Shown here: positions 23,121 through 63,530 of the stretch, piece after piece
How the letters are laid out: every line of letters starts with the position of its first letter
How positions within the stretch are numbered: the first letter of the stretch is position 1
Assembly: GCA_001662655.1 (NCBI GenBank)
Contig: KV460211.1
DNA: 64,000 nt
Direction: 5' to 3' (one strand)
Source: Pseudogymnoascus verrucosus
Lineage: Eukaryota
The notes under the pieces: generated by a model
Seen by the model: the letters and a program-made list of their open reading frames with translations, nothing else
What the model was told of the DNA's origin: nothing
Databases searched by the model: none
Made by a program: the position numbers and the translations under genes

Positions 23121-23547
23121 ACTCTCTTCCAACCAACCACCGACACATCTTGACTGATTCCAACTATCGCTGTCGCCTCCCTCTCCGCCCTCCCCTCCCA
23201 CCTCTCTCCGCCCTTCCGCCCACTGCTCGGTCAGCAAAATTAAAGATACAACCACCCCCCGAATACATACAACCCACCCCTTTCGCCACGATCACTCCTC
23301 GACTTCCTGTTGGACACGAAGGGACGAGGAGACACCCGGATTTTCCCCCTGTACGCGGCCACACATCACACATAATCCCCGAACAGACAGAGAATCTTTG
23401 CGACGACCGACACATCCACCATCCCGACGCTCATCGCGTCGCTGAAACAAAATCCATCGTGGCCCCCCGTAAAAGTCATCGCGACGACTTCGACACCTCC
23501 CCCATTTCATCAGACGTTGTCTTCGGTCGCGAACTTCGTCACCCGCG

Positions 23548-26112
23548 ATGAATAACAACGTGAACATGGCCGCCCTGAACGCCATGGGCGCTGGCGCCGT
23601 CGGTGGCGCCGTGCCCATGATGAACAACGGCGTCCCTGGAAACCAGCGCGCCTTGCCCGTGGACGACTCCCAGCAGAGGGCTCGCCTGAACACATATATC
23701 TACGAATACTTCATCTGCAACGAGATGTACGATTGCGCCAGGGCTCTCATCAATAGCGAGCAGCCCGTCAACCTCCTCAAGGGGAGCCCCAACCAGCAGC
23801 GCGATGCGAACGGGAACCCCGTCGATGGCGCTGGGTCCGACGATATGGAGGACACCAAGGAGGGCATCGATATGAAGAGGCCGGATGACTTACCCGCCCC
23901 CAACCTACCTAGGGAATCTTCCGAGAGTTGCTTCCTCTTCGAGTGGTGGAGCTTGTTTTGGGATATGTTCAACGCGCAGAGGGGCAAATCCGAATCGCAA
24001 AACGCGCAGCGCTATGCAAACTACACACAAGTAAGTCGTGTCGCAACGTAATATTTTGAATGCTCGGTGGCTAATATTCGCGATAGGCTCAATCGAGGTT
24101 CAAGCAGGAGCAACAACAACAGATGCTCCGCGCGATGAGCCAGGGCGGGATGATGGGCATGCGTGGCCAGCCAAATGGCATGGGGATGGCCCCGAACGAC
24201 CTTGCCCGCAAAGCTATGCAGAATAACAATCGTAATATGTATGTTGTGTCCGAAGAATTGGGGTAGAATGGCGCTAATCAGAATCACAGAACTCCCCAGC
24301 AACAAATGCAGTTAATCGCACAACAACAAGCGAAACAGAACCAGCAACTACAACAGCAGCAGATGCAACGAGACGGCTCCGATATGGACGGCAACCGCCA
24401 GCAGAGGCCACAATCACCCGGGTCCGCTGAGGGCGCGCCGTCGCCATCGAAACGCCCCCGCCTCGAAAACGCGCCGTTCAACGCAGCCCAAGGAATGATG
24501 CCGAATGGAAGGGGACAGGGTATTCCGGGCCAGCAGGGTGCCGGTCCCGGTGGCAACGTCGCACCAAACGCGCAGATGCTCCTTGCCAATGGTATCAACC
24601 CTGGCAACTTGACCGCGCAACAATTCCAGAACTTCCCTGGCCAGGCGCAAGGCCCCAAGGCCTTGCAGCAGTACAACAACAACCTCGCCCAGCACCAGCA
24701 AAGCCAGATGCCTAACAAGGGAATGCCCAATCCAAATGGACCGCAAGGCCAGGGCTCTCCCATGATGCCGAACCAAGACGGCAATATTGCGGGCTACTAC
24801 AACGCTGAGACGAGCGGCATGCGACCGGGGGCTAACGTAGGGCCTAATAATGGCAGCCACGCCCTGCAAGATTACCAGATGCAGTTGATGCTATTGGAGC
24901 AGCAGAATAAGAAGCGATTGTTAATGGCCCGACAAGAACAGGATGGATTGACGAATAACCGTGATGGGTCTGGTGGACCTGGACAAGGGGGACCGGGTGG
25001 ACCTGGTGGACCTAATGGACAAGCTTTCCAGGGAACGTCGCCGCAGGGAGCTCGATCTGTTAACTCGCCAAATCCGAATGATATGAAGCGGGGGACACCG
25101 CAGATGAACACGACGGGCGTGCCTTCGCCAGTGCCTGAAGGCCAGTCTCGCGGATCTCCTGGCTCAATGGGTTTCATGCCCGGCAACATCGACCCGAACA
25201 TGACACCTCACTTCTATGGAAAGGTTAATGGAATGGAGGGAGGTATGATTGGTGGTGTGCCGAACGTGATGCGTCCCCCGAGTTCGCATCCTACTGCGTT
25301 CAATGCCAATGGCCAGCCCAACCAGCAGATGATCAACATGCAACGGCAGCAGCAGCAACAGCAGCAGCAGCAGCAGGGCAATGTCAACCAACAAGTCCAG
25401 GGATGGCCTGCTGGGCCTAATGGTACCCCTATGATGCAACAAGCATCGCAACCAGGGGCGCCGACACCTCAGCCAGTTGGGACACCTCAGCAACGCGCCA
25501 TGCCACCGCCATCTGCACCTGCTGTTGCTCAGGCAGCGAACGGCCGCACAACAACCTCTTCCCCACAACAGCCCGCGGCACCCCCCACTCCATCCCAAAC
25601 TACCAAGGCGAACCCCAAGGCAAAGAAGGATACCAAGCCCAAGGTAATTTACTCCCGCTTTCCAACATTTATCATAGTATACTGATGCTAACACTTTTTC
25701 TCAGCGAAACACAAAGAAGGCAGCTCCCGCAGGGGTAACACCCGCCGCCGAGGGTGCCACGGAAGCGGCGACGCCTACACCCGCGACGCCGATCACGCCC
25801 ATGCACGCCCAGAGCTTCAACAAGAACGGGCAGAACAACGGACAAGCGAACGGCCAGCCTGCAGCGCCGGCCGTCTCGCAACCCCCCGTCATCACGCAGC
25901 CACAACCAGAGCCCGTGCAGAACGGCGTGTTCTCGATGGACGACAGCAATTTCATGTCGGGCATGTCGATGGATTTCGCAAACCCGACTGCGGGTGGTGG
26001 CGATGTGCTGCAGGACTTTGACTTCGACTCGTTCCTTAATAACAATGACGATAACCCGGATAACTTCTCCTTCGACGCCACGTTCCTCGATCAAGAAGTT
26101 ATTGCAGAGTAA
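23548..26112 (+). CDS. FLO8: LisH/LUFS-domain transcriptional regulator Flo8/Som1; exons 23548-24030, 24087-24238, 24290-25643, 25705-26112
   Basis: LNTYIYEYFICNEMYDCARAL (LisH), FLFEWWSLFWDMF, PSPSKRPRL (NLS), HALQDYQMQLMLLEQQNKKRLLMARQEQ, C-terminal DVLQDFDFDSFL. Three canonical introns keep the frame. Confidence 0.92.
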
Positions 26113-29062
26113 ACCCCCCCTCTGGCTCCGTCTCTCGTTGCTTTTATATCGAAAAAAGGGGGAGGGTTGCTACACACAACTCATGCGCCCCCAACTCACC
26201 TCACCTCACACACTTAAAGGCGTTTATCATCACTCACTCACATCACATCACATTACGCAAACTACCGACCAATATGGAGATACCTGCGAATAAATGGCGT
26301 TTTCTCGTTCGTTCGTTGTAGTCAAAGTCACCAAACCGGTTATACCACTCCTCTGTGCATTATTCACATCAATCAAACATCTATCATCATTGTTTTCAAC
26401 TTGTTCACTATTCTCCCCTTTTCCCAATTATTTCCTCAATTATCTTGGGTCCGGGAAGGGAGGCGCGCTGGGTCTTTTGCTTTTGCTTTTTCTTTTCTTT
26501 GGTTGGGGGGTTATGGGGAATTTCGCGCGGTTCTTATTTTAGAGAAAGAAAAAGCTGATAGTTCTTTTTTTGATCATCGTCATCGTCGTCGTCGTTGTTG
26601 GTTGGGTCTTGGTCGTTCACTCACCCCACCTCCCCTCTTTTTTTTTTTTGGCTACATACTGCCGCCGTTTGTCAAAAAGGGGGTTCGGAAAGTTCTTTCC
26701 GATGTGGTTGGTTGGGGTCCCCCCCCTGGTCCCCTACTCTCGCTACGCGCTGTGGTGGACGGGGAAAAGAATGCGCGGCTACGGTGGTGGTACGCAGACG
26801 CCCGAACCGAAAAAAAAAATCGCGCAAGGAAAACAGCGGATGGGGGGAGCGAGCGTGCTTGGGCTTGTTCGTGTTCTTGTTACGAGGTGTCTCGGGAGGG
26901 AGTGGGTAAGGAGACGAACAGGCAAGGGGGTGGGGATCGTGCACAACCACTCTATATGCGTGTCTCACAGCGCAACGGAACGCACCACAACACTCTTGTC
27001 GCAGCGCACGAGCCTCGTCGACAGGCTGAATCCAGTAGGGGAGGGTCGAAGTGGGGGGAAAAGAAGAGAGAGTGTTGAGAGTTGAGAGAGAAGGGGATGG
27101 GAGATGGGAGGGAGATGGTGGGGTGGGGTAGGGAGTACGGGAAGGGTAGTCAGGCAGGAAGATCCTTTAACGGTTTCAGGATCTGCTATTTATTAACGGA
27201 AAGTTGGCGTCTCGGGCAGGAATTTGTTTTTGTTGTTCTTGTTTTTCCCTCTCTTTGGTTTTGTGGATATGTTTATTTTGTTTACCTCCCCCTCTGTCTC
27301 TCTGGCGGGGAAGGGGAAGTGGAAGGGGGAGGTGGGCTTGCGTGTAACTCTTTGTTGTTATTGTTTTTTTTTGGGCGCTTGTGCCACCGCGGCGAAGGGG
27401 GGGGACGTACGTAGCTATGTCTGTCTGGCCTGGGTAGGCTGGGATTCAAATGGATGGTGGGGTTGGGGGAGCGGGAGAATGAAAGATGAATTATGGTCAC
27501 CGACTTTTTTGCCCTGTCTTATGTCTCTATCTTGTCTGCCTGCCTGTCTGTGACTGCATCCATGCCTGGTGCTGCTGCTGCTGCTGACGGTGATTGTTAA
27601 TGACCATGATGACGACGATACTGCTAATCTCCCAGATCTGATCGCGCTGTGTGTTTGTTGTAGGCTCTACCTACATGCTGCTGCTGTGCTGCGGTGGTGC
27701 GGTGGTGCGGGGGGGTGTGGTGTAGCATGTGACTAGATCTGATGCTGTGCCCTGTGCTGTGTCGTGTTGTGTAGTGGTGTCGTGATCCCCTTGGCTTGGT
27801 GTGTGGTGATCTGATCGGGAGGATCGGGTGGTATGGAAATGGCGCATCCTACCCCCTCCTCCCGCCCAGCAGCCGTACCGTCCCCCCTTACAGGAGGGCG
27901 TCACGGACACGAAGGCGTTGAGGGCATTGAAGGCGTTGCGGACTCGGATGGCTTTACTGGCTGGACTGGCTTGGCTTGACTGACCGGCTTGCATTAACTA
28001 AGCAAGCTGGCTGACCGGTTCCACTGACAAACCGACCGACTTCACGCCCGCCTTGCCGACGTTACACCCCTTTTTCTCACCGGTCTCGCGTATTTGTCAC
28101 CCCTGATCCCTCACCCTCTCCCTCTCCTAGGGGCCCGTTTTCCGGCAGCTGGCAAAAGCTGGCAGCTGACGGGGTCGGTGAGGATGCGGCCGAGGGGGGA
28201 CTTGGGTATCGATCGGTTGGGATGTGGCTGTGGATCTCCTATAGAAATGGGAGAAGTGGAGATGGTTTGACGTGATGGGGTGGATGAGGTGGATTACCTT
28301 GATGTGGAAGACGGGGGCTGGGATACGCTGCGCCGGGGGGTATGTGGATGGGGATGCAAGGCGGGCGAGGATAGGGGTGTGGGTGACGTGCAGGATGCAG
28401 GGAAGGGGGGCGGCACGGGAAGGAGGAGCGTCGGAGGGGGTTAGGGGTGGGTGAGGGGAGGGAGTAGGGGTTGAGGCGGCAGGGTGGTGTGGTTGCACGG
28501 CGCGTTGGCGGTGTGACGGGGATGGGCGGGCTTCGAGAAGGGGGGCTGGCGGGAGAAGGGAGGGGAGGGGGGTTAGAAGTGTTAGAAGTGTTAGAAGTGG
28601 GGTAGCTGAGGGGGGAAGGAGGTTTCGTCTGATGAGGAGGTGGGTGATGGTGAATGGTAGTAATGGGGGGGTAGGGATTTGGATTTATTTTTTGGGGGTG
28701 GAAATGGAGGAGTGATATTTGGAAAATGTGAGGCTGAGATGATGGGAGGGATTTATGTATGATGATGTATTGTAGCACTAGAAATCACGATTTGGGAATA
28801 TCAAATTTGTGTTTATACAATATATTGATTTCAATGTGTAGAAATGATTAAAAATCCATCCCCTTGACAAAATAACTCGTCTCTTTCAGCCTCGCAGCCT
28901 TACCTCGTCATCGCATCCGTCGCCTTCGCGGCTCCTCAGCCTCGCCCCTCCCTCTCCACTTCCCACCAGCCTCCACCAAAACACCTCTCATCCACAACCC
29001 CATCATCCGCCCTTCCAGAAACCCCTCACCACCTGCACTCACCCACTTTACCCACCTACCCC

Positions 29063-29994
29063 ATGTCCACCCCTCTCCCCGGCGGCTTCCTGCCTACCCC
29101 CCTCTCCCCCACCCCTTCCATCTCCTCCCCCCACACCTACACCAACCTCCCGCACCCGCGGCCGCGCCCCCTCCGCCCGGGCAGCGGCAGAGAAGAGACG
29201 ACGCGGCGGTGGGTCGAGAATGCGCTGTTGAAGGTTTCGAGACGGTATGTGAAGAAGTTCCAGCCGGTGGAGATGAGGGGGCCGGGGGAGGGAGAGGAGG
29301 GGAAGGGGTATGAGAGGATGGGGGATGTGTGTAGGGATTTGGGGGAGGTTGTGGATGTACTTTGGAGGAGTGGGACGCGTGAGTTTGTTCCTTTATTTTC
29401 TTTTCTTTTTCTTGGGCGGGTTGCTTTGGTGGATGCGCTGGGCCCTGGACTCGGGAGGGGGGCGAGCGGGCGGCTCCTTGCGTTTGAAACGGATGTTAAT
29501 ACTGACGTGGTGGGGTAGCGAGTCTGCAGATTCCGTATTTGTTTAATATCGCACTGGCGGTATCGACGTATCTACCAGCGTTTCCAGCTGCGCCGGGGGC
29601 GACATTCGGGTTGTTGAGGAAGATGGACCATGCGCTTGCGAGTTTGTTGGTTGGAAAGGATGTGGCGAGTGGGGAGGCGCTGCCGGGCTTAGAGGAGGAG
29701 GGGAGTGGGATGAGCAGGACGGATATGGTGAGGTGTAAGAGTATTGTTGAGCAGACGCGTGTTGTTGTCGTGGAGGTTATGGGGAGGGAAGGGGAGGTGG
29801 AGGATGAGGGGAGTATGGCTACAGAGACGGAGGATGAGGGGACGGATGGGGGGGGTGCGCAGATGGACTGGGACGAGGACGAATCCGATCTGCATAACAT
29901 GGATGTCGCAAAGGTTTACGAGAACACGATTGTCAGGCTCGATGAGGCGTTGAATCGCGGGACGGCGTATGATGTTGGCGCATCGTCGGGTTGA
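29063..29994 (+). CDS. TFB6: TFIIH-associated Tfb6-like protein; exons 29063-29378, 29519-29994
   Basis: LPHPRPRPLRPGS..SRRYVKKF..DLGEVVDVLWRSGTP|SLQIPYLFNIAL..TFGLLRKMDHALASLL..MSRTDMVRCKSIVEQTRV..VAKVYENTI. Intron GTGAGT..CTGAC..TAG. Confidence 0.7.
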
Positions 29995-30432
29995 ATAATT
30001 CCTTTCCCCGAGTTACACTCTGACGACTGATGCCGAATGATCGACCGTGCATACGACAGTAAGGGATGCTGCCACGTGTGGCGGGGGTCGAGAAACTTCG
30101 GACGGGATCTGGCAGAGAGTCATTTACAAGGCTACCCCCCTAGCTGTTGTTTGCTTGCTCACACCTTGCCTGTACGCCCGGGGGGAGGAGATCGCCGGAA
30201 GTGAAGACTTGCAGAATACGCATAGCTGCATGAATGTCTTGCGGAAGCTAGAGGACAATGGATTACGTGCTTGGCGCCGTGGGTACGAGGGTATCTTATC
30301 GGATCTGTATCTAATAATTGACGTATTTGTTGTCGTGCTTGGGGGTGGCTTCATATTTTGATTATTTCATAGGTTCTACGTGCGCGTCACGGAATAATGC
30401 CGCAACGCAGTGCAACCGTTTACAACGCCGCT

Positions 30433-45499: not shown

Positions 45500-48400
45500 C
45501 TAGGCAGTCAAAGGCATCTTCCCCTCCTCCCCAACCGGACTATCCTCCCCCCCAACCGCCACCCCCACCCCTCCATCCTCCTCATCACCCCCCTCCTCCC
45601 CCTCCTCAAGCCCCACCCCCCTAATATTCAACCCCCCCTCCCCCTCCCCCGCGCCCCTCTCCTCCCCCTCCTCCAACCCCATCAACGCCGGCGGCCTATG
45701 TCTCATCGCCCTCGCCTTGGCAAGACTAATCGTCTTCTGCTGATACGTCGTCGTAATCGGGGTTGTATCATCCCTATCGATCGTCGCCTTCATCAGGGCC
45801 GCCATCCAGAGGCGTCCCTGCGCGATATTAGGGACGGCGAAGTAGTGAACTGTTGGCTTGGTGAAGGTTACGGCGCGAGAGAGGCCAGTGCGGGGGGGCA
45901 TGAGTTTGAAGATGAACATTGAGTCCGCCTCTGTTTTCAATCCCTTCCCTGCTTCGGCTGCGGCGTCCGTTTCGGCGGTAGTGGGTGTTTGTGCGCCCTG
46001 TGGACTATTCGGGCCGGATATCGCACCAGTGATAGTAGCGTGCAGTCCCGTCAATCTATCGTTATCAGCGGGTAAGACGCGATGGAAAGAGATATCGATG
46101 AGTCCCTTCTCCTCTGTGTCGTTCTCGGAGTAGTAGTACGATAGCCTGCGACCCTTGAGGATGAAGAGACGGGGTTTCCAAGTCGTCATGATGTTTGTGC
46201 TCTTCTTCTTCATCCAGCCGCTGTAGTCGCAGTTCTCCATCGCTTCTTTGGGGGAGATGTTCTGGAGGCCGCGCGTGTAGGCGCTTGTTTCTTTCTTCCC
46301 CTTCTTGCGGTTTGAGCGCGCGGCGGCGGAGAGGATGGTGCTCTTTGATGTGTTGGAGGAGTCTAGGTCGAAACTTGGTCCGCCGGAGGGTGTGCTTGAC
46401 CCGGTTCGTGATGGGGAGCGGTTTGAATCCGTCGGCGAGACAAGCTGCTGATCAACACCATTTCTCGCTCTCTCCTTCCCAGTTACCGCATCGGAAATGG
46501 CTCTGAAACCACTTCCACGCCCCGCTGCTGCATTGAACCAATCCGCCGCCCTACCACCAGATGCAGTCTTCGAGGTACCAGCTAGTGGAATACCATCCAG
46601 CTTCGTGACCATAGGCGACGGCGTATCCTTCGGCGGCGGCGCAGGACGAATCGACCCCACAGACGGCGTCCTCCTCGCCCCAGCAACACCATAATACTTC
46701 TGCCCCGCCGGCGACAAATGCGGCTGCTGCAACGAATCGATACTCCCAAACCTCGAATGCCTATTAACAGTAGTAGCGCTCCTCAGCCTCTGCTCATCCG
46801 TATAGCTCGACTGTCGCGAGTGCGACCCCGTCCGCTTGCGCAGCACGTTCTTCGTCCGGCCCTCGGCTTCCGTGCCGGAGAAGTAGCCCCGGTCGAACTC
46901 GTAGGGGGTCGTGCTGGTGATGGCGGGGAAGGCCTCGTCGCTGGCTGCTGGGTGCACGCCGGCTTGGGAGGCGGGACGCATGCCGGCGGAGGGGGGTTGG
47001 TCGCCCATGGTCCAGTTGCGGTCGAAGGAGGGGAGCTTTTTGTGGCCTGATGATGCCATGGTTGGTGTTGTCACTTGCGGGCCGTCTGGGGACTTTGCTG
47101 CTTGGTTGAGCAGCGTGGGGGAATCGATTGATGAGTGTCGGCGGGAGTGATTAAATTCTCGGATAGACGCCGCAGACGGACGACTCTGCCCAAGCGCCGG
47201 TCTTTGTTGGTCCTCGGGATAAATTGAAGTCTGGCCCATCGAACTCAGGCGTCCAGTTTGTCTTTGCGAGGAGTACCGCGTGGTTCCGCTGTAGTACTGA
47301 CTCCTAGTCCCTCCACCATCCGAACCCATCTCACTCCCATAGATAGACGGCACACGTCTCGACCCTGAAGGCGTCATAACCCCATGAACCTCATCCTGCA
47401 GCGCCTTAATCTTCTGCCACGTCTTCAACCGTCTCCCCACCGGCCCCAACTCAAACTCCTTCAAGAAAATCGTACTCTGATCCATCCCCAGCAGCACATC
47501 TCCCGAGATCTCCTGATCACGAAACACATCGCAATGCGCCTGCTCCACCCCCGCAGCCGCAAGATGCTCAGCAACCTGCGCAGCAGTCCACTTGCTAACC
47601 TCCGCACGATTAAACTCCCTCGCCTCCTCCTCATCCGTCTCCGACCCATTAATATACGACGCCCTCCTGTCAATATGACTACTATACTCGCTCCCCGAGT
47701 CATTCGTTCCCCTCCTCTCTGCAATCCCCCCACCGCTGTTCCGAGGCGTGCTCATATTCGAAATGTGCTCCTGGATCACACTCAGCGTCTCGCTCATGAC
47801 TGGGCTGCTATCCTGGCCCAGCCCCGGCAAAACCGCAGACGAGATAACGCTCTTCGGTACTGCTGAAATCGGCTCGACGACTGTTGGTAACGTCTCCTCG
47901 GTGGCGTATGTCTGGCTAGCAGACTGCGGCGTGTTCAACGGTGATGGTGATGGCGGTCCGGCATCCAAGACCTGCGATGCACTAATATGTCTCTCCAACT
48001 GCGTCGTCTTCGTCGCCTCCTCCACCGGCACCGAATTCCTCGTATCGAGCACCACCGGCGCCGGTGCCGCCGCAGCAAGAGGTGCAGGTGCCGGCGTCTC
48101 AGCAGTAGGCGTCGTCTGTTCCGGTGCCAGCACGGGTGTAGGGGTCACCGCCGCAGCCACCGGCGGCATCTGCGTAACAACCGGCGGACCCTGTGGCGCT
48201 ATCTTGGTATAAACTACAATAAAATCCCCTGTTAGTCGCCGTCGCAGAGTCGAGATTAAGAAGGGGTTTTCTCACCCTCAGGGAAGAGCCCGGTCGCGCC
48301 GTTCGTGAGATGTTTCCCGAGATACCATCCATCCCCAAAATCATCATCTCGCTCGACCAATTCGACGCGGTCGCCGCGCGTGAGTGTCAATTCATCGGAG

Positions 48401-48672
48401 CCGCGCGCGATGAAGTCGTCTGTGTAAATAGTGGGTTAGCTAGGATAACAAATAACCCCCAGTCGCGAGGGGGACAACAAATGTGCGGATCGCCACACAG
48501 CCATCGTCGCATCTTGCCACCTCTGCGCACACCTTCCTCCCTCCCTGTCTGCGCGCTGAGAGTCGGGTGGCCATGTATGAATCACCACGGACGGAGTTCA
48601 CTTACGAATAACCAAAAGAATCATCCCCTTCTCCGGCCGCGGCTTAGTCTTGTCTGGCAAAGGTGACGCCAT
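45500..48672 (-). CDS. Boi1/Boi2-like polarity scaffold (SH3-SAM-PH), 2 introns
   Basis: Spliced SH3 ILLVI|HDFIARGSDELTLTRGDRVELVERDDDFGDGWYLG..GLFPE|VYT; SAM WTAAQVAEHL..QEISGDVLL..GPVGRRL; PH YSGWMKKK..WKPRLFILKGRRLSYY..GRLWMAALMKATI. Confidence 0.92.
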
Positions 48673-50838
48673 TGTGTAGTGGGTATCGTCGTCGTCCCTT
48701 CACGTCGCGCGTGGAGCTGCCCTCCCTTACGCACCGCACATGCGTGTCTGTAGGTTCTTTCTTGTGAATTTGTGAGGTTGTGTCCTTTGTTGGGAGGTGT
48801 GTCGTTTTTCGACTTTGTTCGCGTTTGCGTGAGGGTGGTGGGGGATGTTTGGGTGGTGCTGTTCGGGAAGGGGATTGGGGTCGTTGTGGTGGTGGTGGTT
48901 GGGGATTTCGAGAAGTGGTCTGTGGAACGCGGGATTGACGCAGTGGTGGTAGTAGTGGAGTGTGTGTACTCGGTGGGACGATTCAGGGAACCCTTGGTGA
49001 ATGAAAACCGATTGAAAGGAGCGTAAAGTAGATGAAGAAAAGAGGTAACCCAAACAAACAAGAGTAGCTGGCTTGAAGTTTCCTTTTCGAATAAAATTAA
49101 GATGGTAAGAATTGAAGAAATGTTTCGTTGTTCTCGGGGGGTGAAGGGGGCGGGGGGGGAGAGGTGTTGTTGTCCGCAAAGAAAAAGGTGACCAGAGCTT
49201 GATTAGGAGAGGAGTCGATGTTATTTGCAGGGCGTTTGTATTAATATTGGCATATTTCTGGCCCTTTTTTTCACCCTCGGAGCTCAGGTTCACATCAGTT
49301 TAGTACTATTACTACTATACTACTACTATACTACTCTACTACCCTACTATCCTACCTAGTACTCTACTCTACTACCCAAGTAATCCTAGTACTACTTACT
49401 ATATTAAAAGTGGTTGATGCGCACCGCACTGTAGGGATTAAACAACACACGGCGCTAAGGAAAAGGCATTCCCCATTCCGCTCTACCGCCGCCCGCAGCC
49501 CAATACAAACAAAGCCGGTCCAGCCCATAAGCAGCCATGGCATAATCTAGCATAGCATAATTCGACAAAAAGAGAAAGTGAAGGAAAAAAAAGAGGCCCC
49601 AAGACAGACAGACACCCACTCCCCATGGCACCGGCCGGCAAGTTTAGGTGGAGCGAGGGGGAGGGAAGGAGGGAATTCTTCAATTGCCGTGGTAAGCTCA
49701 AATCCGCCGTCAATCCATCTCTCTATGAATCTAGTGAAGTAAAAGTTGTGCTCTCTACCACGTGTAAAGTTACATCTAAACACTCCTCTCCTACATAAGT
49801 GTAGTTACAGGTTACAAGTCTACTACATTGCGTCAGGCTTAGAGCACATATCACACCTCACACCGTCCACAAGCAGCATGCGTTGTCAACACTTTTTTGT
49901 TTACTCACCATCTATTTGCCATAAAATCCGGCTGACTGACTCTGACTCTGAACCAGCGTCGTCAGGCTCACTGAGACATTCGCATCGCGTTTGTTCATTC
50001 CGCCACCCGCGCCTGCGGCCACATGCCACAACAACAAAAAAGTCGAGTAATCTACCCGCGGTGAGACACTTGACTTTCCCTTGATCAACAAAATGCTTGC
50101 TTTGTCTGTCTGCTTACATACATCCACGGAGTGATCCAGCTCCTACACTCCTGAGCTCCTACACGGCGATTTCCATAATTAGGAATAACTGCTCCGGCTG
50201 CTGCTGCAGAATTACCCTCCATAACCCACAGCACCATGCATACAACCCAGACCACTACTACCATATGGGGTAATCAATCGTCACCAACACGCCGACATGA
50301 GAGCTAAGCTAAGCTAAGCGCTATGATCCCCTTCCCTCCCTCCCTCTCTCCTCCGCGCTCAGGCAGCCAAGCGTCAGTCAGCAGCGAGCGTGCTGGCAGC
50401 ACATGACGTGTTAAAGGGTATGTACAGTACAGTGCAGTGTACCTATATCTTGCATCGCCGCGCGCCCCTCTTTCTGGATGCGATTTAAGCCACATATCTC
50501 GTTAGTGATGGGTGTAGTAATAAAGAAGGTTTTCTTTGTAAAATATCTGCATTGTACATGATGTGTATGATAGTTTTTTCACCGGGTTTACCGGACCTCC
50601 ATTGGATATTATGCCAGATGGAGGTCCGGGAAAGGCAGTAAGTAAAACTATAGTATCTGCCTACATTCCATCGATTCCATTCAGGGGTATGCCATATCCA
50701 TATCCATCCATTCCAATCCTTTCAACGCCATCCCATTTTCTCCGGTGCAGTATATGCAGTGCAGTATACAGTATCTTCCCCCCAAAAAAACCATTCCCAA
50801 TTCATCAGTCATCATAATCATCCCCCCTCCCCCCTCTT

Positions 50839-52919
50839 CTAAAAACAATAATGCTCCGTAAACAACGCAATCCCCTGCGCCCCCGTCCCCTTATGCACGC
50901 CCCTCTCATCCGACAACGCAGCAACATGATTCCTCACACAAGCCACGATGCTCTTCCCTCCACAAACAGCAACTTGCGTCTCCCCCGCCGTCGCCTCCAC
51001 GGGTCTCCTTATGAACGACCCTACGTCGGGGCGGGAGGAGGAGTATATGATCTGCCGATTTGTTGGTTTTAACGACGTAGTTTCGGAGTTGGTGCGCGCG
51101 GAGGACGAGGGGCGGGAGATAATGGTTGAGGTGATGTCGCCCTTCTCTGTGCTGGGGGTGATGGAGAGGGAGGAGGTTTCGGTGATGGGTTTGGTCTCGA
51201 TGGGGATTATCCCCTTTTCGATATCGGATTTTTGGCTTGCTGCTCCTGCTGCTGCGGCGGTGGTGTTAGACACTTCAACAGCGAGATTCGGCGCCATCTC
51301 AAAATTATGACACTGGCAATTCGATCCACAACAACTCTTCGTCCCTGTCGAAGTCCCACACGTCACAGCGATCCGAACAGTCAGCGCGATACCAGCGCGT
51401 TCCGCGGCCGTGATGGCGGTTTTAATCCGCTCGATGTAGCAGTCTGTTGAATCGCGTTTGCGGACTACGTGCAGCATCTCGATGCGGCGGACGCAGGTTA
51501 GGCCGTCTGTGTTGTTGACTATGCTTTCGAGGATGGGGAGGGTGAATGTAATCCCCGTTGAAGCGGATATTAGGATTAAAGTCTCAAAGGCGGCCCAGGT
51601 TGGTGGTCGGCCGAGGGGTCCGGTGATGATTGCTGTGACGCCATTCTTTTGTTGCTTCGTAGCAGCCGCGTGAAGGCGCTTTGTGAACCCCCCCCTCTTC
51701 TCGATGAGAAGCTGTATCGAAGACGCGCTGGAGGTGTCGGGGCAGGCGCTGGCGATGGTGAAGGGGTGTGCTTCCAGAGGTCCAATAGAGGGGATGCGGA
51801 GGTAGATGTGCTGACCAGCAGCCCATTTAAACTGTACATCGTGGACGATGACTTCCGTCATCTCATCATTCACAGCTCTGATCTCCGCACGGTGTCCGAT
51901 GAACTTCGATAGTCCGCTTCCCGTCTTCCCAGACGCAGGGGCGTTCGTCCAGGCCGTCCAGGCGTACATGGCTAGCTTGTCGAACACGAGTGCTGCGATC
52001 GCAAACCAAATGTTGTATTGCGCGTAGGACGGGACGTGCATCCACAGGAGCCATAAAAACACCGCTGCCGCCGCAATATGCTGGAGAACGAACAGCTCAT
52101 AGGAGAAGCTCCGGATTGGCGTTAGGGAGGTGAGGAATGTCCACGCCAGAACCGCCCATGCCCCAATTCCATATTTCACCATCGTCATCATCTGCAGCTC
52201 CACCTCCACCAAATCAGCCCTGTACCACTCAACGTAGAAGAAACCGCCGTGGACAGTAACCGTCACAAGCAGAGTCCTCGACACCCATCTATGAAGCCAA
52301 TTAATCCTCTCATGCGAGCTCCCCGACAACAAGCCAATGAGACTCGCTTTCGACGCCAGCAGATACACAAACGGCACCTGCGTGACCGACACCCACGCCG
52401 CGCGGAAAGCAATCTTTTCGTAGTAGTACGCGTCGAAGGTGATGGAGTGCCATAGGAGCATGTAGAGGATGACGGCCATGTAGATGACGATGATGAGGCT
52501 GCGGCCCAGGGAGGGCGGGCTCAGCCATGATGCCCAGCGGTTGTTGATGTGGTATTTTGGGCCGGCGATTTCGCGGAGGATGGCGCTGCCTGTTGCGAGG
52601 GCTTGGGCGAGGGCGTTGCGAGGTTGGGTGGGGTGTTCGACGGCGCGGAGTTTTGCGAGGCGGAGTCTGTGGGTGATAGTTAGATGGCGATTCTTAATGT
52701 TGCCTTTATGGTTCTGGCAGCAACAGAGGGAGTGTGAGCGGGGGCAACGAACCTTGTGCGTGTCTCTGCGATCTGGAAGATGCGGAGAAGAGCTGTGAAT
52801 CCTAGGACGGCGGCGATGATATACCAGTAGCTGCGCGCCATGGACGAGTTCGTGTCGACAAAGGCGGCGCTGTCGGAGCTCATGTCCATGCCCATCCCCA
52901 TATTCATATCCATCCCCAT
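50839..52919 (-). CDS. Ferric/cupric reductase transmembrane component (FRE family) with Met-rich N-terminus; exons 52919-52753, 52666-50839
   Basis: Heme His pairs WLHRW..VTVHG and LQHI..WMH, FAD motif HPFTIAS, GQHIYL, GPLG, VAVCG, C-terminal EHYCF. Starts MGMDMNMGMGMDMS. Confidence 0.92.
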
Positions 52920-53290
52920 TTTGGCGTGGGTGTTGCGACCAACACGGTCGGCTTTATTGACTGTCCTCCCAAGGTTGTATGTATCAATATCAGTTGTGTT
53001 CGTCTATGAGGCCTCTTTTTGGCGACAGCACGCTCAATCCACGACAAGGCAAACGATTTACAAAAAAGTCAAGTACGCGACAACACCTTCAAAGTATGAA
53101 TTTCCCTGAGACATAACCACCGTCTTATCGCCCCCGCGTCATCCCCCTCAACATCCGTGATCTGGCACTATTAACTCGTGCCTTGACATGGTTTTGCACG
53201 CCTAGCACTCTTTAGCACAGTAGTATTCCCGCCATGTGGGCGTCTGGAGTCAGTTCAAGGGTTGTCGGTCGTGCGTGTAGCCAATCAGAA

Positions 53291-53415
53291 AGTGCTCAAA
53301 GTCACTCGGTTTGGCTCAGTGGCGCTAGGCTCAAAACAACGTGCTCACAGCTTCTCACATCGAGGAATTTGCCAGAGGGAAAGGGATGAGCTGGTTAATA
53401 CTGGAATGATGCTCG
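53291..53415. promoter_or_regulatory. Cluster of GCTC(A/G) copper-response-like (Mac1/Cuf1 CuRE) motifs in the divergent promoter
   Basis: AGTGCTCA 53291, GGCTCA 53313, GGCTCA 53328, CGTGCTCA 53340, TGAGC (minus) 53387, TGCTCG 53410. Further cores near 53032, 53531, 53802 and 53909. Confidence 0.5.
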
Positions 53416-54095
53416 AATACGCGCAGTTGAGTGTGTTTTATGACTTCGGATGAAGGGTTGGAGTGTATTTGAGTGCGTTTGTTTACTTTGGTGGAGTGTT
53501 GTCCAATTTATACGTGGGTTTTAGTAAGAATGAGCTCTGTACTGGTTGCGGCAGTGGCTAAGGGAAGCTATAATATAGTCAGCGACGATCCTTCAATCAT
53601 CCCGCCGCCTCGCCTCTTTTTCTACAGCAAACCGTTTGTTACTGGCGCCAATTCGCCATCCACCTGTGTCGTGATACCTTACTTTACTAGTGATTTACTA
53701 ATGGATATCATGTACTCCTGCATACTATAATCTACCCCATACCGTCTCAGCAACATGTTCGTTGGCGTTGGTTGGTGTCAGTTCGTGTCGTCGTTGGTGC
53801 CGCTCAGTCCGGTCAACCCGTTCAATCCAAACCCACAAGGTTACCGCAAGCCCCTTCCGTCCCCAACCCCCCCCCAGCCATCTAGGGTCCATTAAACCCA
53901 TTAAACTTGCTCATCCCCAAGGAGACCCTCCTTTAAAGACCGACCTGCCGCCCAGCCGCTTATTGATCATCCACAGCCTCATAATATTCCAAGACAAACT
54001 CCCCCTCCACCCCCTCAGCCTCGCACCTCAATCCACATCGCACGCACGCGTTCAATCAAGGATCAACACAGCACAGCACAGCACCTCCCATCACA

Positions 54096-54880
54096 ATGCT
54101 CAACGCCAACGTAGTCCTCCTCGGCCTCGCCGTAGGCGTCGCACAGGTCAACGGCCACTTCAACCTCAACTACCCCACCACCCTCGGCTTCAACGACGAC
54201 ACGGAAGGCACCGGTCCCTGCGGCGGCTTCGAGCCCTCCCTCGTCAAGACCACCGACTTCCACATCGGCGGCGACTTCATCGCTGTCAAGACCACCCACC
54301 CAAAGTCCAATTGGTACTTCCGCGCCACCACCAACGCAACGGCCGGCGGCGGATGGGTCAACATCCTTCCTGAGATCGAGCAGACTGGCCTCGGTGCCTA
54401 CTGCGAGCAGAACCTCAAGCTGCCAGACTCGTTTGCTGGACAGAAGGGATTCGTTCAGGCTGTTCAGCATGCCGCTGATGGCGACCTCTTTCAGGTAAGC
54501 TGTCCCTTGCTCCTCCCGTTCCATTGGGATCTTTAGCTAACTGGATTTAGTGTGCTCCCGTCAACTTCGTAACGGGCGTCGCTGCCTCCATCCCATCAGC
54601 GTGCACAAACGCAACTGGTCTCACTGCCACCGTCGTGGGCGGCGCTGCCTCCTCCGGCGCCTCCACCACTGGCTCCTCACCATCGTCTACCGGCGGAAGC
54701 GAGGCATCATCTACCAGCGGAAGCGAGGCATCATCTACCAGCGGAAGCGACGCATCGAAGACTTCGAGTGCCGCGGCGGAGACGTCGACGGGTGCTGCGT
54801 CGGCGATTGGGGGTGAGGTGTTTGGTGCATTCGGTGCTGCTGCCATGTCTCTTGCGGCGCTGTTTGCAATGGTCCTATAA
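54096..54880 (+). CDS. GPI-anchored Bim1/X325-like copper-binding (LPMO-like histidine-brace) protein; exons 54096-54494, 54551-54880
   Basis: Signal peptide ending AQVNG gives mature His1 (HFNLNYP..GF..E..GPCGG), then TTHP, GLGAYC, ADGDLFQ|CAPVNF..CTNATG, a Ser/Thr stalk with a 24-bp x3 repeat (54686-54757), and a hydrophobic GPI signal. Confidence 0.85.
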
Positions 54881-55509
54881 TACCCTATTTGATATGGAGT
54901 TTGAGAGCAGATGGGGCTTTTTTTGTAACTAAAAGAATAATGAATCGATGAAATATTTGAAATATGTCCTGGGTTTAAATGAGTTGGCTGTCCAATGCCT
55001 TGCTTTGCGCACTGTTTTAGTAGTTTTGTCATGGAGAAAGAGTCACAAATATGGCTTTTGCGGTGTAAAATAGGTAAATTGGAACGGGTGTACATAGATG
55101 GCCATGGTAGTACCATTGCGCACATGTCTTTGGTAGCCCTTGCTTGCCGTGCTCATAAGTAAAAGCCATAGCTGCTCTTAAGTATAAAATGCGCGAAGAT
55201 ATCTGTTGCAATCCCTCTCAAACATCCCCTCTTTCTCCAACGTGCGTGACAGATAACCTGAGGGGTCCAACGCTCTTGGCCTTTCGAAAACCACACCCCT
55301 GCAACAAAACCATTTGTTTACCTGGTTGCCATCCCGTCGCGAAACCCCTACTAAACTTCACGACCACGAACAATTCGCAGAATTTCCGCGCACGCCACCA
55401 GCAATCCGCCACTACAGATTGAATAAAGAATGATATATAACATCTAGACGCCCACCACTACGACACCAGCTCAGCGCCGACGATACCCGGGAGTGGGCAA
55501 ACCGCGGCC

Positions 55510-57766
55510 ATGGAGTCGGATAACCTGCGCACCGCGTCGGTGTACATCAACAACTTGCTCTTATCGCGCGGCCTACTGAAGAATGGGCAGAACCTCGATT
55601 TCGCGCACCCCGAGCAAGGGGAAGGAGGCTCGGAGGGGACGATGGGAAGGATTATGGGGGTAGTAAATGATTTAATCCTGCGACGAGACGTGCGTTCCTC
55701 CTCCCTTATTTCCCTTTCTCACCCACCCACTTCACCCAGAATCAAATAACTAACCAAACCCCCAGCGCGACGCAACCCAGCGCGAAACCCTCTCCAACAC
55801 CCTCCGCACCCTCCGCGCCGACTCCCTCCGCCAAACCACCGACCTCACCCGCCTCCAAACCAAGCACGCCGAAACCCAACGCAAACTCAGCCTCTCCGAA
55901 GCGACCGAGCGGGCACTAAAAGCGCAACTACGCGGCGCGGAAGGCGCGGCGAGGGGACTGCGCGAGGAGATGGGCAGGATGCGCGTGCTTGTTGGGCAGG
56001 CGAGGGCGCAGTGCGCGAACGAGGTGAGGAAGAGGGAGAGGGTTATTGAGGGGTTAAAGAAACATGTTGGGGAGGGGGGGAGGGCGAGGGGGAGCGGGAA
56101 GGCGGTGGGTGTTGCGACTGTTACGATAGTGGCGGGGGTGGGGGGGGAGGGGGGGGAAGGGGCGCTGGTGGGGGTGGGGGAGAGTGATTATGATTTGAGG
56201 CAGGAGACGAATGAGTTTTTGACGGAGCTGGCGAAGGGGTTGAGTGAGGAGAGCGAGAATTTGGGGATGTTGCTTAGGACGACGGTGGAGAGTTTGAAGG
56301 CGCTTTCGGGGTGGGAGGGGGAGGAAGAAGGGGGGAGGGGAGGGGAGTTGGTGATTAGTGTTGATGATAGTTATGAGAATGTGGCGGCGGAGATTGATTC
56401 GGTGATTGAGCATCTCCGGACGCTGTTGACGAATCCGAGTTTCGTGCCACTTGAGGAGGTGGAGGTGCGCGAGGATGAGATAATTCGGCTGAGAGAGGGC
56501 TGGGAGAGGATGGAGTCGAGGTGGAGGGATGCGGTGAGGATGATGGATGGGTGGAGGAAGAGGATGGCGACGAGTGGGCAGACTGTTAATCTGGAGGAGC
56601 TGAAGGCTGGGTTGGAGCTGAGCCCGGTTAAGGACTTGAGCGGCAAGGACCAGAATACCCAGGACTTGGAAGATGGCTATGAAGAGGGCGATACGCAGGC
56701 TGATATCGATGCCATGGACGACTCGCAGGTTCCGGGTGGAGAGGATATAACGCCAGACTTGGATGAGATGAGCGATGCCAGCTCATTTGAAGAGGAGCCT
56801 GAAGACTTCGTTGTGGAGCCGACACCCCAAATAACGGCGCCATCCGTGCAAGCAGCAAAGCCTGTGGAAGCTGAGATCACAGACCAAAGACCGAAACGAA
56901 GCGGGCGCGAAGCGCGAACCGAGCTCAGCAGCAGCCTCAACACACAAGAAGATAACAAGAAGAAGCGCAAACTCGACCCTCAAGCCCCTCCAAGCTCTAC
57001 CTCGCGTGTTTCGAAACCAAGAACCGATAGTAGCTCAGACATCAGCACCTCACGCCGCGCACCAGCACCACGCAAAGAGCAAGTCGTCGAAAGACAACAA
57101 CCAGAGCCAGAAATGGCTCCCTCATCCTCCCCCGGCCCACCACCACAACTCTCGCCCCTCCGCCCAATCCCCGACCCCAACCACAGGCGCAAAAGCGAAT
57201 TCACAACCATCGTCGAGGAAAACACCTGGGACTTCGCACAAATGGATCGTTCCTCCACCGATCCCGTCCCGTCATCCGACGAGATCTCCCTCCTCAAAAC
57301 ATCGCGCCACGACGCACCACCACCGACGACGACCGAGACATCAGCCCGCCAAGCTTCTGCTGCTGCTTCCACACCACTGAAATTAACGGGCGCTTCGAGA
57401 CTTCCGAGGCCGGCTTCGGCGATGGCGCAGGAGAGCCCGCTCACGATGGCGAGTATAGCGGCGAAATTGGCGGCGACGGAGCGGGAGGCGGATGCGGCGC
57501 GTGTGAGGGCGAAGTTGAAGGCGGCGAAGTTGAGTTCTGCGGCTGCGGCGACGAATTTGGCGCCGCCGAGGAGGAGTGGAGAGGAGGGGGAGAGGGAGAG
57601 GGAGCCGGTGAAGGGGGGTGGGGAGATGGTGGAGGAGGAGGCGCCGAGGAAGAGGAAGGCGAGTAGCAGGATGGGGGGGAGGGCGAGTAGGAGGAGGAGT
57701 ACGTTGAGTCCGTGGGAGTTGGAGAGTTTGATTTTGGGGGGGGTGGGGGAGGGTGCGGGGAAGTGA
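55510..57766 (+). CDS. tinA: ADIP/Msd1-family spindle-pole coiled-coil protein (NIMA-interacting TinA-like); intron 55690-55765
   Basis: MESDNLRTASVYINNLLLSRGLL, VVNDLILRRD|RDATQRE, QCANEVRKR, YDLRQETNEFL, LLTNPSFVPLEEVEVREDEI, C-terminal RRRSTLSPWELESLI. Confidence 0.8.
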
Positions 57767-62605: not shown

Positions 62606-62946
62606 TGGGAATGAAATCGGAAAACTGGCGTCACGGTGCAATAGAAATCAATGAATTATCCAGTTAATTAAAAGCGTCCTATTCCATGAGGAAGTCCCCC
62701 GCATATGCATGCAGGTCGTCTCTTGAAGGGTTATTGAAAGGCCGCCCGTGGCCCAGGACTCGCCTATTCGCGCCCAGACTAGAGATAATGTGAGAAATTT
62801 GTGACTAGTACAGAGCTGAGGCCAATACATACGACACCACATATGATTCCTCTGTCCCGTTCTCGTGCTCCTCTGTAGATAAAAACTCGACAGTTGCCTT
62901 TCAGTCCCAGAGATCTCATATCAAAACCTTTCAGTCGCCATTCAAG

Positions 62947-63530
62947 ATGAGGTTTTCAGTTATCACTCTCGCATGCCTAGCTTTGCTGCTACAGTCTTCT
63001 CGCATCCGGTTACCGATGCCCTTGAGAAGCGCGACGACCACACCTTCAAAACTGTTCTCAAAACAACCTGGACTGATCTTGATGTTGCTGAGAAGGCAAT
63101 CCATAAGTACGATGACGACAACTATGAATTTATTGAAGCTGTCGACACTGCCCCCAAGAATTTACAAAAGAGTGAAAAGGAGGTTAAGGCATCTGGAGCC
63201 CTCAGTAAGGCTGGTGTTGCCGACATCAAGTTGATCTTTCAAGATTTAGTGACTGTGTCCAAGGCTCTACACGATGAGTTGATTGTCAAGAGACCTACGA
63301 TTGAGGCCACCAGGAAATGCAGGTTTATCCGCGTTAAATTGTCGCTGCTCTGGGCTTTCTCGGCCAACCTCGTCAACGCTATCGCTGACAACTCTGAGCC
63401 CAAAATCAAAGACCTCATTAGGGGTTATGCTGGAGACTACCTCGTTAATATTCGAAAAGCTGAATATGGGTTTGATGAATCGAAATGCATCGATGCGACA
63501 TACGACTTGTCGTCGCAGGGTGACCTGTAG
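62947..63530 (+). pseudogene. Second HsbA/Mp1-like secreted protein with a frameshift inside the signal peptide
   Basis: MRFSVITLAC (ATG 62947) and SFAATVFSHPVTDALEKRD.. lie in different frames. The mature part (RDDHTFKTVL, ELIVKRPTI) parallels the 17305 protein (RDLATFKTII, DTIAKKAAF). Confidence 0.6.

Follow-up and report, generated by a model that had tools for sequence, protein, structure and literature searches.

A divergent metalloreductase and BIM1-like gene pair in Pseudogymnoascus verrucosus: a likely copper-limitation module with a putative Mac1-type promoter element

A metalloreductase of the ferric reductase (FRE) family and a BIM1-like (X325) protein are encoded head to head in a 64,000-nucleotide stretch of Pseudogymnoascus verrucosus DNA from contig KV460211.1, hereafter the window. 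The locus is very likely a copper-limitation module in which a bidirectional promoter of Mac1 type would serve both genes, with steps of copper handling that we infer. The pair is genuine but mostly ordinary, being part of a fungal copper-uptake gene set which has already been studied, and because its orthologues are known to be copper responsive there is little that the pair adds by itself. Of possible use are two by-products, namely a candidate copper-responsive element and a Ctr-like methionine-rich tail in the reductase clade. In a number of fungal pathogens virulence is linked to copper acquisition, and Pseudogymnoascus includes the bat white-nose pathogen.

The reductase is encoded on the minus strand, with the following features:

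50839..52666, minus strand: reductase exon 2, read in frame from 52665, with the stop codon at 50839-50841; six-helix ferric-reductase, FAD and NADPH domains
51307..51333, minus strand: CCGSNCQCH motif, in an insert of the cytosolic NADPH-binding domain
52021..52293, minus strand: the histidines that ligate the hemes, four in all (H181/H195 and H252/H266, counted along the full-length protein), with 13-residue spacing within each pair
52667..52752, minus strand: reductase intron of 86 nt, bounded by GT..AG and containing the branch site CTAAC
52753..52919, minus strand: reductase exon 1, starting MGMDMNMGMGMDM; residues 1-30 form a methionine-rich acidic tail
within 52753..52919, minus strand: predicted extra N-terminal transmembrane helix, YWYIIAAVLGF...

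Pfam searches returned three domains in the order expected of FRE proteins, each above its cut-off: Ferric_reduct (3.8e-23), FAD_binding_8 (3.4e-14) and NAD_binding_6 (5.7e-9). Across 45 aligned reductase orthologues the pairs H181/H195 and H252/H266, which lie on two helices for two hemes, are invariant, as are H356, P357 and T359 of the FAD motif HPFT, G405, P406 and G408 of the NADPH motif GPxG, and the CGG motif. The protein is 97% identical to V501_07951 and 89% identical to VC83_03096 of P. destructans, with which it shares an identical methionine-rich start. At least three methionines occur in the N-terminal tail of 42 of the 49 full-length reductase relatives. The tail contains one Lys or Arg against four Asp or Glu, whilst the next loop contains ten against three, and on this balance of charges the N-terminus is predicted to face outwards. 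No description of a Ctr-like methionine-rich tail on the VC83_03096-type reductase clade was found in the literature searched.

The original prediction also pointed to the CCGSNCQCH insert of the reductase. The motif is kept in nine of 11 relatives inspected, reads CFGSNNQCH in P. destructans and is absent from the relative P0022. Because it lies in the cytosolic domain and two of its four cysteines, all present in the window reductase, have been lost in P. destructans, a role in extracellular copper handling is unlikely.

The BIM1-like gene is read from the plus strand:

54096..54494, plus strand: BIM1-like exon 1, matching Pfam PF20238; codons 54096-54155 encode a hydrophobic leader of 20 residues
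54156-54158, plus strand: codon of the predicted His1 of the mature protein (His21), directly after the putative signal peptide, whose leader ends VNG
54297-54299, plus strand: codon of His68, in TTHP, the second histidine of the brace
54477-54479, plus strand: codon of Asp128, the first D of DGDLFQC, a motif which straddles the intron between its Q and C
54495..54550, plus strand: BIM1-like intron of 56 nt, running GTAAGC..TTTAG and containing the branch site CTAAC
54551..54880, plus strand: BIM1-like exon 2, encoding the last part of the fold (CAPVNF...), then a linker rich in Ser and Thr, then a hydrophobic tail at the C-terminus, closed by a TAA stop codon
54692-54757, plus strand: 24-nt tandem repeat in the Ser/Thr-rich linker
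54824-54877, plus strand: hydrophobic C-terminal tail

Exon 1 alone matches the Pfam BIM1-like domain (PF20238) over profile positions 1-115 of 140, at 3.6e-23 and with a score of 83 bits, the cut-off being 27. In a phmmer search the protein matched chain 6ibh_A of LaX325 from Laetisaria arvalis (PDB 6ibh, 6ibi, 6ibj) at E 6.3e-6. LaX325 comes from a basidiomycete and is only 28% identical to the window protein, but the two have the fold and the His-His-Asp positions in common. Of 27 homologues, 26 have His21, which lines up with residue 1 of the mature LaX325 chain, and all 27 have His68, the counterpart of His49 in 6ibh_A. Asp128, within AADGD, aligns with the Asp of the GGDGN loop in 6ibh_A and, in an alignment read by eye, occurs in 24 of the 27, being invariant in closer sets. 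An Asp is the fourth copper ligand in X325 proteins (PMC10952591, PMC7529816). The AlphaFold2 model is confident for residues 21-160 only, where pLDDT exceeds 90, and its four best Foldseek matches are LaX325 chains (E 5.7e-9 to 1.5e-8, TM 0.75-0.77), led by 6ibh_B (E 5.7e-9, TM 0.77). The protein is 86% identical to its orthologue VC83_03095 (BLP2) of P. destructans, and is predicted to be secreted and probably GPI-anchored. The features named in the original prediction (the methionine-rich start, CCGSNCQCH, His1, TTHP, DGDLFQC and the C-terminal tail) were all present at the positions it gave, and its placing of both genes in their families was borne out by the Pfam matches, the LaX325 alignment, Foldseek and the invariant reductase residues.

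Foldseek matches 5-20 of the same model are mostly LPMOs, and this LPMO-like fold would suit a different partnership, in which the reductase donates electrons to the histidine brace, for example in oxidative remodelling of cell-wall polysaccharides, or triggers copper release through reactive oxygen species. In the second of these forms, superoxide or peroxide made by the reductase would release copper from the BIM1-like protein. The reductase superfamily is related to NADPH oxidases, its PDB matches including NOX5, NOX2 and DUOX1, and copper release from Bim1 is accelerated by H2O2 (PMC7529816). However, Bim1 displays neither cellulose cleavage nor redox cycling (PMC7529816), and the fourth coordination site is filled in X325 by the Asp (PMC10952591) which the window protein retains. 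This partnership, in either form, is considered improbable.

Both introns can be traced in sequencing runs. In run X1 a single contig connects 52666 with 52753, skipping the 86 nt of the reductase intron, and one contig of run X2 carries the joint of the BIM1-like gene, skipping 56 nt at 54492/54549. These two runs, taken to be RNA by guess only and analysed, like the others, in small shares (0.05-0.29), span the exons and leave uncovered the intergenic region, which the DNA-like run X4 does cover; the read depth of X1 and X2 does not serve to rank the reductase against the BIM1-like gene.

Between the two genes lies the region they share:

52920..54095, no strand assigned: divergent promoter common to both genes, 1176 bp between the two ATGs
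53281..53349, plus strand: conserved promoter block containing a CCAAT box, the 12-mer and a second core; aligns with locus L001
53289-53300, plus strand: the 12-mer AAAGTGCTCAAA, of pattern AAnKTGCTCAAA, occurring once in the 64-kb window
53341-53347, plus strand: second core, GTGCTCA, within the conserved promoter block
53907..53913, plus strand: third Mac1-type core, TTGCTCA, 183 bp 5' of the BIM1-like ATG

The shared promoter of some 1.2 kb first proposed measures 1176 bp and has a conserved, putative Mac1-type element inside it. In an unbiased scan of 8-mers, TGCTCAAA ranked first, occurring in 11 of 12 intergenic regions, whereas across 200 shuffles no 8-mer did better than six of 12. 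The 12-mer recurs, its orientation unchanged, in ten of 11 further FRE–BLP intergenic regions, and across non-redundant loci 19 of its 20 matches sit upstream of the BIM1-like start. It agrees with two Mac1 motifs from the literature, TGTGCTCA (PMC6514546) and DHNTGCTCA (PMC11563359). Enrichment within the window alone is weak, with three TGCTCA cores in the promoter against about 0.75 expected, and when the window was shuffled 100 times, 23 of the shuffles contained at least one match to the 12-mer. The shared promoter lacks the Mac1 consensus in its strict yeast form, TTTGC[TG]C[AG], and ORFs of at least 45 aa in 52920..54095 contain no Pfam domain. Known consensus motifs were not found by the authors of the P. 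destructans study in the CTR1a and CTR1b promoters (PMC11509074). The 12-mer is a conserved candidate copper-responsive element for Pseudogymnoascus, and its regulator would, to judge from the motif, be of the Mac1-orthologue type.

The FRE family takes its name from ferric reduction, and iron regulates many of its members. A reductase dedicated to reductive iron uptake, paired with a copper protein only incidentally, would suit this background, but several observations make such a role very improbable. The shared promoter contains no SreA-type ATCWGATAA site. The orthologue VC83_03096 responds to a copper chelator (PMC12113139, PMC13208438). Furthermore, an Aspergillus fumigatus strain in which Afu6g02800 to Afu6g02820 had been deleted together grew normally on iron-limited medium (PMC2481287).

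In P. destructans the orthologous pair VC83_03095/VC83_03096 carries consecutive tags and is induced by copper withholding at both the RNA and the protein level. Under the copper chelator BCS, BLP2 rose 3.8-fold and VC83_03096 is given only as 'significantly upregulated' (PMC12113139), and PMC13208438 gives protein log2 fold changes on copper withholding of 3.57 for VC83_03095 and 3.59 for VC83_03096. Co-regulation under copper limitation, which the original prediction had expected, is therefore seen in these orthologues, and by analogy the window genes may be regulated by copper as well. PMC13208438 describes BLP2 as abundant in all conditions and induced much less than BLP3, and it may also serve a constitutive role in the cell wall. 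The word 'adjacent' is absent from the searched passages of the P. destructans literature, and those of one paper also lack 'divergent' and 'bidirectional'.

The pairing is conserved in relatives, as had been anticipated. Adjacent tags are found in four Pseudogymnoascus genomes (V501_07951/07952, V500_10648/10649, V498_02713/02715 and VC83_03096/03095), and Sclerotinia borealis has a neighbouring pair, SBOR_1254/1255, with consecutive accessions on one contig. A metagenome scan was made with a nine-sequence alignment, one of 27 sequences being too diverse, and in 18 of 45 loci (12 non-redundant) a minus-strand reductase lies upstream of a BIM1-like gene. The layout is divergent in 12 of the 19 informative non-redundant loci and tandem in one; in the other six, the 2 kb or more of sequence upstream of the BIM1-like gene contains no reductase. 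In the paired loci identity to the window proteins is 41-69% for the reductase and 28-61% for the BIM1-like protein. That a divergent layout and an element of fixed orientation have been kept despite this divergence suggests that selection on more than chance adjacency maintains the pairing, which is not in itself proof of a hand-off of copper.

Genes for Ctr transporters were also sought around these loci. No Ctr domain was present in 63 small ORFs of 48300-55760 or in the 30 large ORFs of the window. Nor did a Ctr gene or relic appear, by Pfam match, among 147 ORFs of at least 45 aa from the window promoter and its flanks and the long gaps of L022 and L027. Around the BIM1-like genes without an adjoining reductase (L013, L021, L024, L036 and L041), 143 ORFs of at least 75 aa yielded no Ctr, and the only neighbouring domains were arrestin, RdRP, GH7 and histidine phosphatase.

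A mechanism for the proposed module can be outlined on this basis. The BIM1-like protein would retain Cu(II) at the cell surface through His1, His68 and Asp128. The reductase, predicted to be a plasma-membrane, NADPH-dependent enzyme of the clade that includes VC83_03096, would take electrons from NADPH in the cytosol, relay them by way of FAD and two hemes and so reduce extracellular Cu(II). Ctr transporters whose genes lie in other parts of the genome would then import the resulting Cu(I). The methionine-rich tail of the reductase, predicted to be extracellular, probably binds Cu(I) in the manner of the Mets motifs of Ctr1. That the BIM1-like protein passes its copper straight to the reductase would be a further and conjectural step. 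Complex predictions for the reductase (with an alignment led by P0001) and BIM1-like residues 21-160 (P0126) scored 0.03 and 0.07, the mark being 0.34, values which were obtained without alignments entering and so have no bearing on binding in either direction. Bim1 of Cryptococcus neoformans is reported to be redox inactive, ascorbate hardly reducing it (PMC7529816), so that one cannot take for granted that copper bound to the protein will be reduced.

This poor reducibility of Bim1 favours another arrangement, to which we assign not quite an even chance, in which the two proteins are co-regulated but act independently. The BIM1-like protein would feed Ctr directly or serve the cell wall, whilst the reductase would act on bulk Cu(II), free or chelated; adjacency would then reflect common regulation only, with no transfer of copper between the proteins. 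Bim1 of C. neoformans is described as acting through Ctr1 and as having an effect on the cell wall (PMC13208438), and the constitutive abundance of BLP2 and the six informative loci with a BIM1-like gene and no adjoining reductase point the same way. Against independence stands the retention of layout and oriented element at the identities given above. A more ambitious reading sees in the pair, with its oriented AAnKTGCTCAAA element, an ancient cassette of filamentous ascomycetes in which the reductase itself handles copper: its methionine-rich tail takes the Cu(I) which the outer heme makes from Cu(II) offered by the BIM1-like protein, and hands it to Ctr; it is put forward tentatively and is rather unlikely as a whole. 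Were it true, the 12-mer would be the copper-responsive element that was missed in P. destructans with the yeast consensus (PMC11509074).

A number of parallels can be drawn with known systems. In C. neoformans, Bim1/Cbi1 is, like the protein proposed here, a GPI-anchored histidine-brace protein which binds Cu(II) and is induced by copper limitation; that organism is a basidiomycete, and no neighbouring reductase is mentioned in the text searched. Physical linkage of the two kinds of gene, which the original prediction had supposed to be undescribed, was in fact reported in A. fumigatus in 2008, where Afu6g02800 (GPI-anchored), Afu6g02810 (a copper transporter, ctrA2) and Afu6g02820 (a metalloreductase) are adjacent and co-regulated (PMC2481287). 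This cluster also combines a reductase with a GPI-anchored BIM1-like protein, the match to the window pair being made through accession numbers and not by alignment, but it carries a Ctr gene between the two, unlike the window locus. A table in PMC13208438 lists consecutive accessions for the A. fumigatus counterparts of VC83_03095, VC83_03096 and CTR1a.

Fusarium oxysporum supplies a possible second precedent for such linkage in fre10/FOXG_02393, which together with fre9/ctr3 and fre12/ctr1b forms a set of divergent pairs with Mac1 sites located by ChIP-seq and the consensus DHNTGCTCA (PMC11563359). Fre10 stands beside Afu6g02820 in a leaf listing of the same paper. FOXG_02393 is listed as an uncharacterised protein, and the partners of fre9 and fre12 are Ctr transporters rather than BIM1-like proteins. 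In the supplements FOXG_02393 is named only in figures, and no other mention of it was found in the literature searched. The BIM1-like match from F. oxysporum carried no FOXG tag. In Aspergillus nidulans, ctrA-freC likewise has a metalloreductase and a gene for copper uptake diverging from a common promoter that contains a Mac1 site (PMC7705104), although the partner there is a Ctr transporter and not a BIM1-like protein. The ctrA-freC arrangement is kept in 110 of the 127 species screened (PMC7705104).

Orthology, synteny and a conserved promoter element give good support to a copper-related reading of the gene pair, a metalloreductase and a BIM1-like (X325) histidine-brace protein. Physical transfer of copper from the one protein to the other, as proposed in the original prediction, would be a further, hypothetical step. 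The two genes are divergent, as the original prediction had observed, with 1176 bp from start codon to start codon. Exons, introns and spacing can be read from the sequence, giving products of 664 (reductase) and 242 (BIM1-like) residues:

52919..52753, minus strand, reductase exon 1
52752..52667, minus strand, reductase intron (86 nt, GT..AG, CTAAC branch motif)
52666..50839, minus strand, reductase exon 2
51307-51333, minus strand, CCGSNCQCH motif in an insert of the cytosolic NADPH-binding domain of the reductase
54096..54494, plus strand, BIM1-like exon 1
54495..54550, plus strand, BIM1-like intron (56 nt, CTAAC branch motif)
54551..54880, plus strand, BIM1-like exon 2

Contigs of two public sequencing runs, X1 and X2, carry exact joints across both introns and cover the exons while leaving the intergenic region uncovered; a third, DNA-like run (X4) covers everything. 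These joints, one contig for each, from a relative 90-99% alike and in runs taken as RNA by guess only, support the gene models and their transcription, and nothing beyond. The window is of fungal origin, and the products of its large ORFs are ordinary eukaryotic proteins such as a sugar transporter, ribosomal protein S24e, a cyclophilin-RRM protein and coatomer epsilon.

The proposed FRE-type identity of the reductase is confirmed by Pfam matches within exon 2 to Ferric_reduct (3.8e-23), FAD_binding_8 (3.4e-14) and NAD_binding_6 (5.7e-9). The nearest solved structures are NOX-type dehydrogenase domains. Alignment of 45 full-length relatives shows no variation in the four histidines that serve as heme ligands (H181/H195 and H252/H266, with 13 residues between the members of each pair), nor in HPFT, GPxG and the C-terminal CGG.

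The partner is likewise a BIM1-like/X325 protein, exon 1 scoring 83 bits against Pfam BIM1-like_dom (cut-off 27). An AlphaFold2 model, confident over residues 21-160 and disordered beyond, has chains of LaX325 as its best four Foldseek matches (E 5.7e-9 to 1.5e-8, TM 0.75-0.77). A near-identical database homologue, P0121, aligns with the mature LaX325 chain 6ibh_A from residue 1, so that His21 and His68 match its His1 and His49, and Asp128 the aspartate in its Gly-rich loop. His68 is present in 27/27 homologues and His21 in 26/27. In X325 an aspartate carboxylate is reported to complete the histidine brace, and Bim1 has been modelled likewise (PMC10952591, PMC7529816). The C-terminal half, a Ser/Thr-rich linker followed by a terminal hydrophobic tail, looks like that of a putative GPI-anchored wall protein. 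The linker contains a 24-nt tandem repeat (GSEASSTS x2; 54692-54757). P0121, whose exon 1 is 100% identical to that of the window, has one repeat unit fewer, and in the X2 and X4 contigs 55 nt at the repeat are replaced by 22 other letters; linker length thus differs among strains.

The pairing is retained in relatives. Identity of the reductase is 97% with V501_07951 (Pseudogymnoascus sp. VKM F-4519) and 89% with P. destructans VC83_03096; for BIM1-like exon 1 it is 100% with V499_07698, 98% with V501_07952 and 86% with P. destructans VC83_03095. Going by locus tags, the two genes lie side by side in four genomes of Pseudogymnoascus (V501_07951/07952, V500_10648/10649, V498_02713/02715 and VC83_03096/03095) and also in Sclerotinia borealis, where SBOR_1254/1255 have consecutive accessions on a single contig of 326,912 bp. 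Scanning of metagenome contigs with a nine-sequence BIM1-like alignment yielded 45 loci, in which the reductase was then sought by tblastn. The reductase lies upstream on the opposite strand, as in the window, in 18 of these; once near-identical loci are collapsed, this layout is found in 12 of 19 informative loci. Since the proteins concerned share just 28-61% (BIM1-like) and 41-69% (reductase) identity with those of the window, the pairing extends well beyond the genus. The 26 loci without a reductase comprise 20 that are uninformative (<2 kb upstream) and six with 2.1-4.0 kb upstream. Neighbours in loci lacking the reductase are unrelated, and these loci may represent other BIM1-like paralogues, of which P. 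destructans is reported to have three in all (PMC12113139). One further locus, L032 (16-3395), is a tandem variant with the reductase downstream on the same strand.

The co-regulation under copper limitation envisaged in the original prediction is seen in the sister species P. destructans, at both RNA and protein level. With the copper chelator BCS, transcripts of VC83_03095, known there as BLP2, rise 3.8-fold and VC83_03096 is described as 'significantly upregulated' (PMC12113139). Under copper withholding the protein log2 fold changes are given as 3.57 for BLP2 and 3.59 for VC83_03096 (PMC13208438).

A candidate basis for this response lies in the shared promoter. All 8-mers were counted in 12 non-redundant reductase/BIM1-like intergenic regions, each region being scored once per strand (raw 22). 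The commonest, TGCTCAAA, occurs in 11/12 regions, against at most 6/12 for the best 8-mer in 200 shuffles; with the related loci L002 and L011 treated as one, the independent figure comes closer to 10/11. The element extends to AAnKTGCTCA(A/T)(A/T), invariably reading in the same direction as the BIM1-like gene. Of 20 matches to this 12-mer in the full set of non-redundant loci, 19 are placed upstream of a BIM1-like start; the set includes eight short contigs that end before the neighbouring gene would be seen. The 12-mer occurs once in the 64 kb of the window, at 53289-53300, where some 70 surrounding bases, with a CCAAT box just ahead of it, can be aligned to metagenome locus L001. The TGCTCA core recurs at 53342 and 53908. 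The core fits both the Mac1 element reported for A. fumigatus, TGTGCTCA (PMC6514546), and that obtained by ChIP-seq in Fusarium, DHNTGCTCA (PMC11563359); the strict yeast Mac1 consensus is absent from the shared promoter. Enrichment within the window alone is weak (three TGCTCA cores versus ~0.75 expected, and a 12-mer match somewhere in 23/100 window shuffles), so that the weight of the element derives from its conservation across loci. The yeast Mac1, Cuf1 and CuSE consensus sequences were reported as not found in the P. destructans CTR1a and CTR1b promoters (PMC11509074), for which the relaxed 12-mer is now a candidate.

The linkage itself, thought to be undescribed, has been in print since 2008. 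Sugui et al. reported adjacent A. fumigatus genes for a protein with a putative GPI anchor (Afu6g02800), a copper transporter (Afu6g02810) and a metalloreductase (Afu6g02820), co-regulated upon neutrophil exposure; joint deletion left growth on iron-limited medium normal (PMC2481287). AFUA_6G02800 can be taken as BIM1-like, since in Swiss-Prot it is what the BIM1-like VC83_07867 matches best (PMC5810475), and the A. fumigatus homologues of VC83_03096, CTR1a and VC83_03095 have consecutive accessions (PMC13208438). The A. fumigatus cluster includes a Ctr gene, whereas a Pfam search of ORFs found none between or beside the window pair, nor in the long gaps of metagenome loci L022 and L027. Fusarium offers a possible further parallel in fre10 and the uncharacterised FOXG_02393, a divergent, Mac1-dependent pair sharing a promoter with several Mac1 sites; Fre10 stands next to Afu6g02820 in the tree listing of that paper (PMC11563359). 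Pairing of a reductase with a Ctr gene across one Mac1 promoter is well known (PMC7705104). The conserved 12-mer and a conserved Met-rich tail in this reductase clade are small additions.

This tail, residues 1-30, is acidic; next come a hydrophobic helix and then a loop in which K/R outnumber D/E by 10 to 3. Together with the six-helix core and cytosolic FAD/NADPH domains, this charge pattern predicts an extracellular N-terminus. Among 120 listed relatives, 49 start with Met and have the extra N-terminal helix; the tail has at least three Met in 42 of these and at least four Met plus His in 45. The other 71 mostly begin further in and resemble truncated gene models. In L002, L022 and L027, too, this Met-rich first exon can be seen upstream of the reductase. 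Likeness to the Mets motifs in the ectodomain of Ctr1 (PMC7705104) suggests that the tail could bind Cu(I). A literature search on fungal metalloreductases, Mets motifs, Ctr1 and Mac1 returned no description of such a tail, which does not prove that none exists. The CCGSNCQCH sequence is kept in Pseudogymnoascus and in relatives down to ~55% identity; the P. destructans version, CFGSNNQCH, has lost two Cys. Because its insert is cytosolic, contact with extracellular copper is unlikely; it might serve to sense copper in the cytosol.

The next gene past the reductase 3' end (45500-48435, minus strand) encodes SH3, SAM and PH domains; a Fusarium SAM-domain gene, FOXG_07771, is assigned to the Mac1-dependent ctr3/fre9 cluster (PMC11563359). 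Elsewhere in the window, 22000-30000 shows strong strand asymmetry (AT skew 0.277 at 24001-26000, GC skew 0.276 at 28001-30000) and several long ORFs without a Pfam match, such as 24267-25685. Two genes encode HsbA, hydrophobic surface binding protein A (17185-17841 and 62883-63530). DUF4246 is matched at 19125-21177 by two ORFs, 19125-19880 and 20446-21177, which correspond to the two ends of the profile, N- and C-terminal, and are probably one gene with introns.
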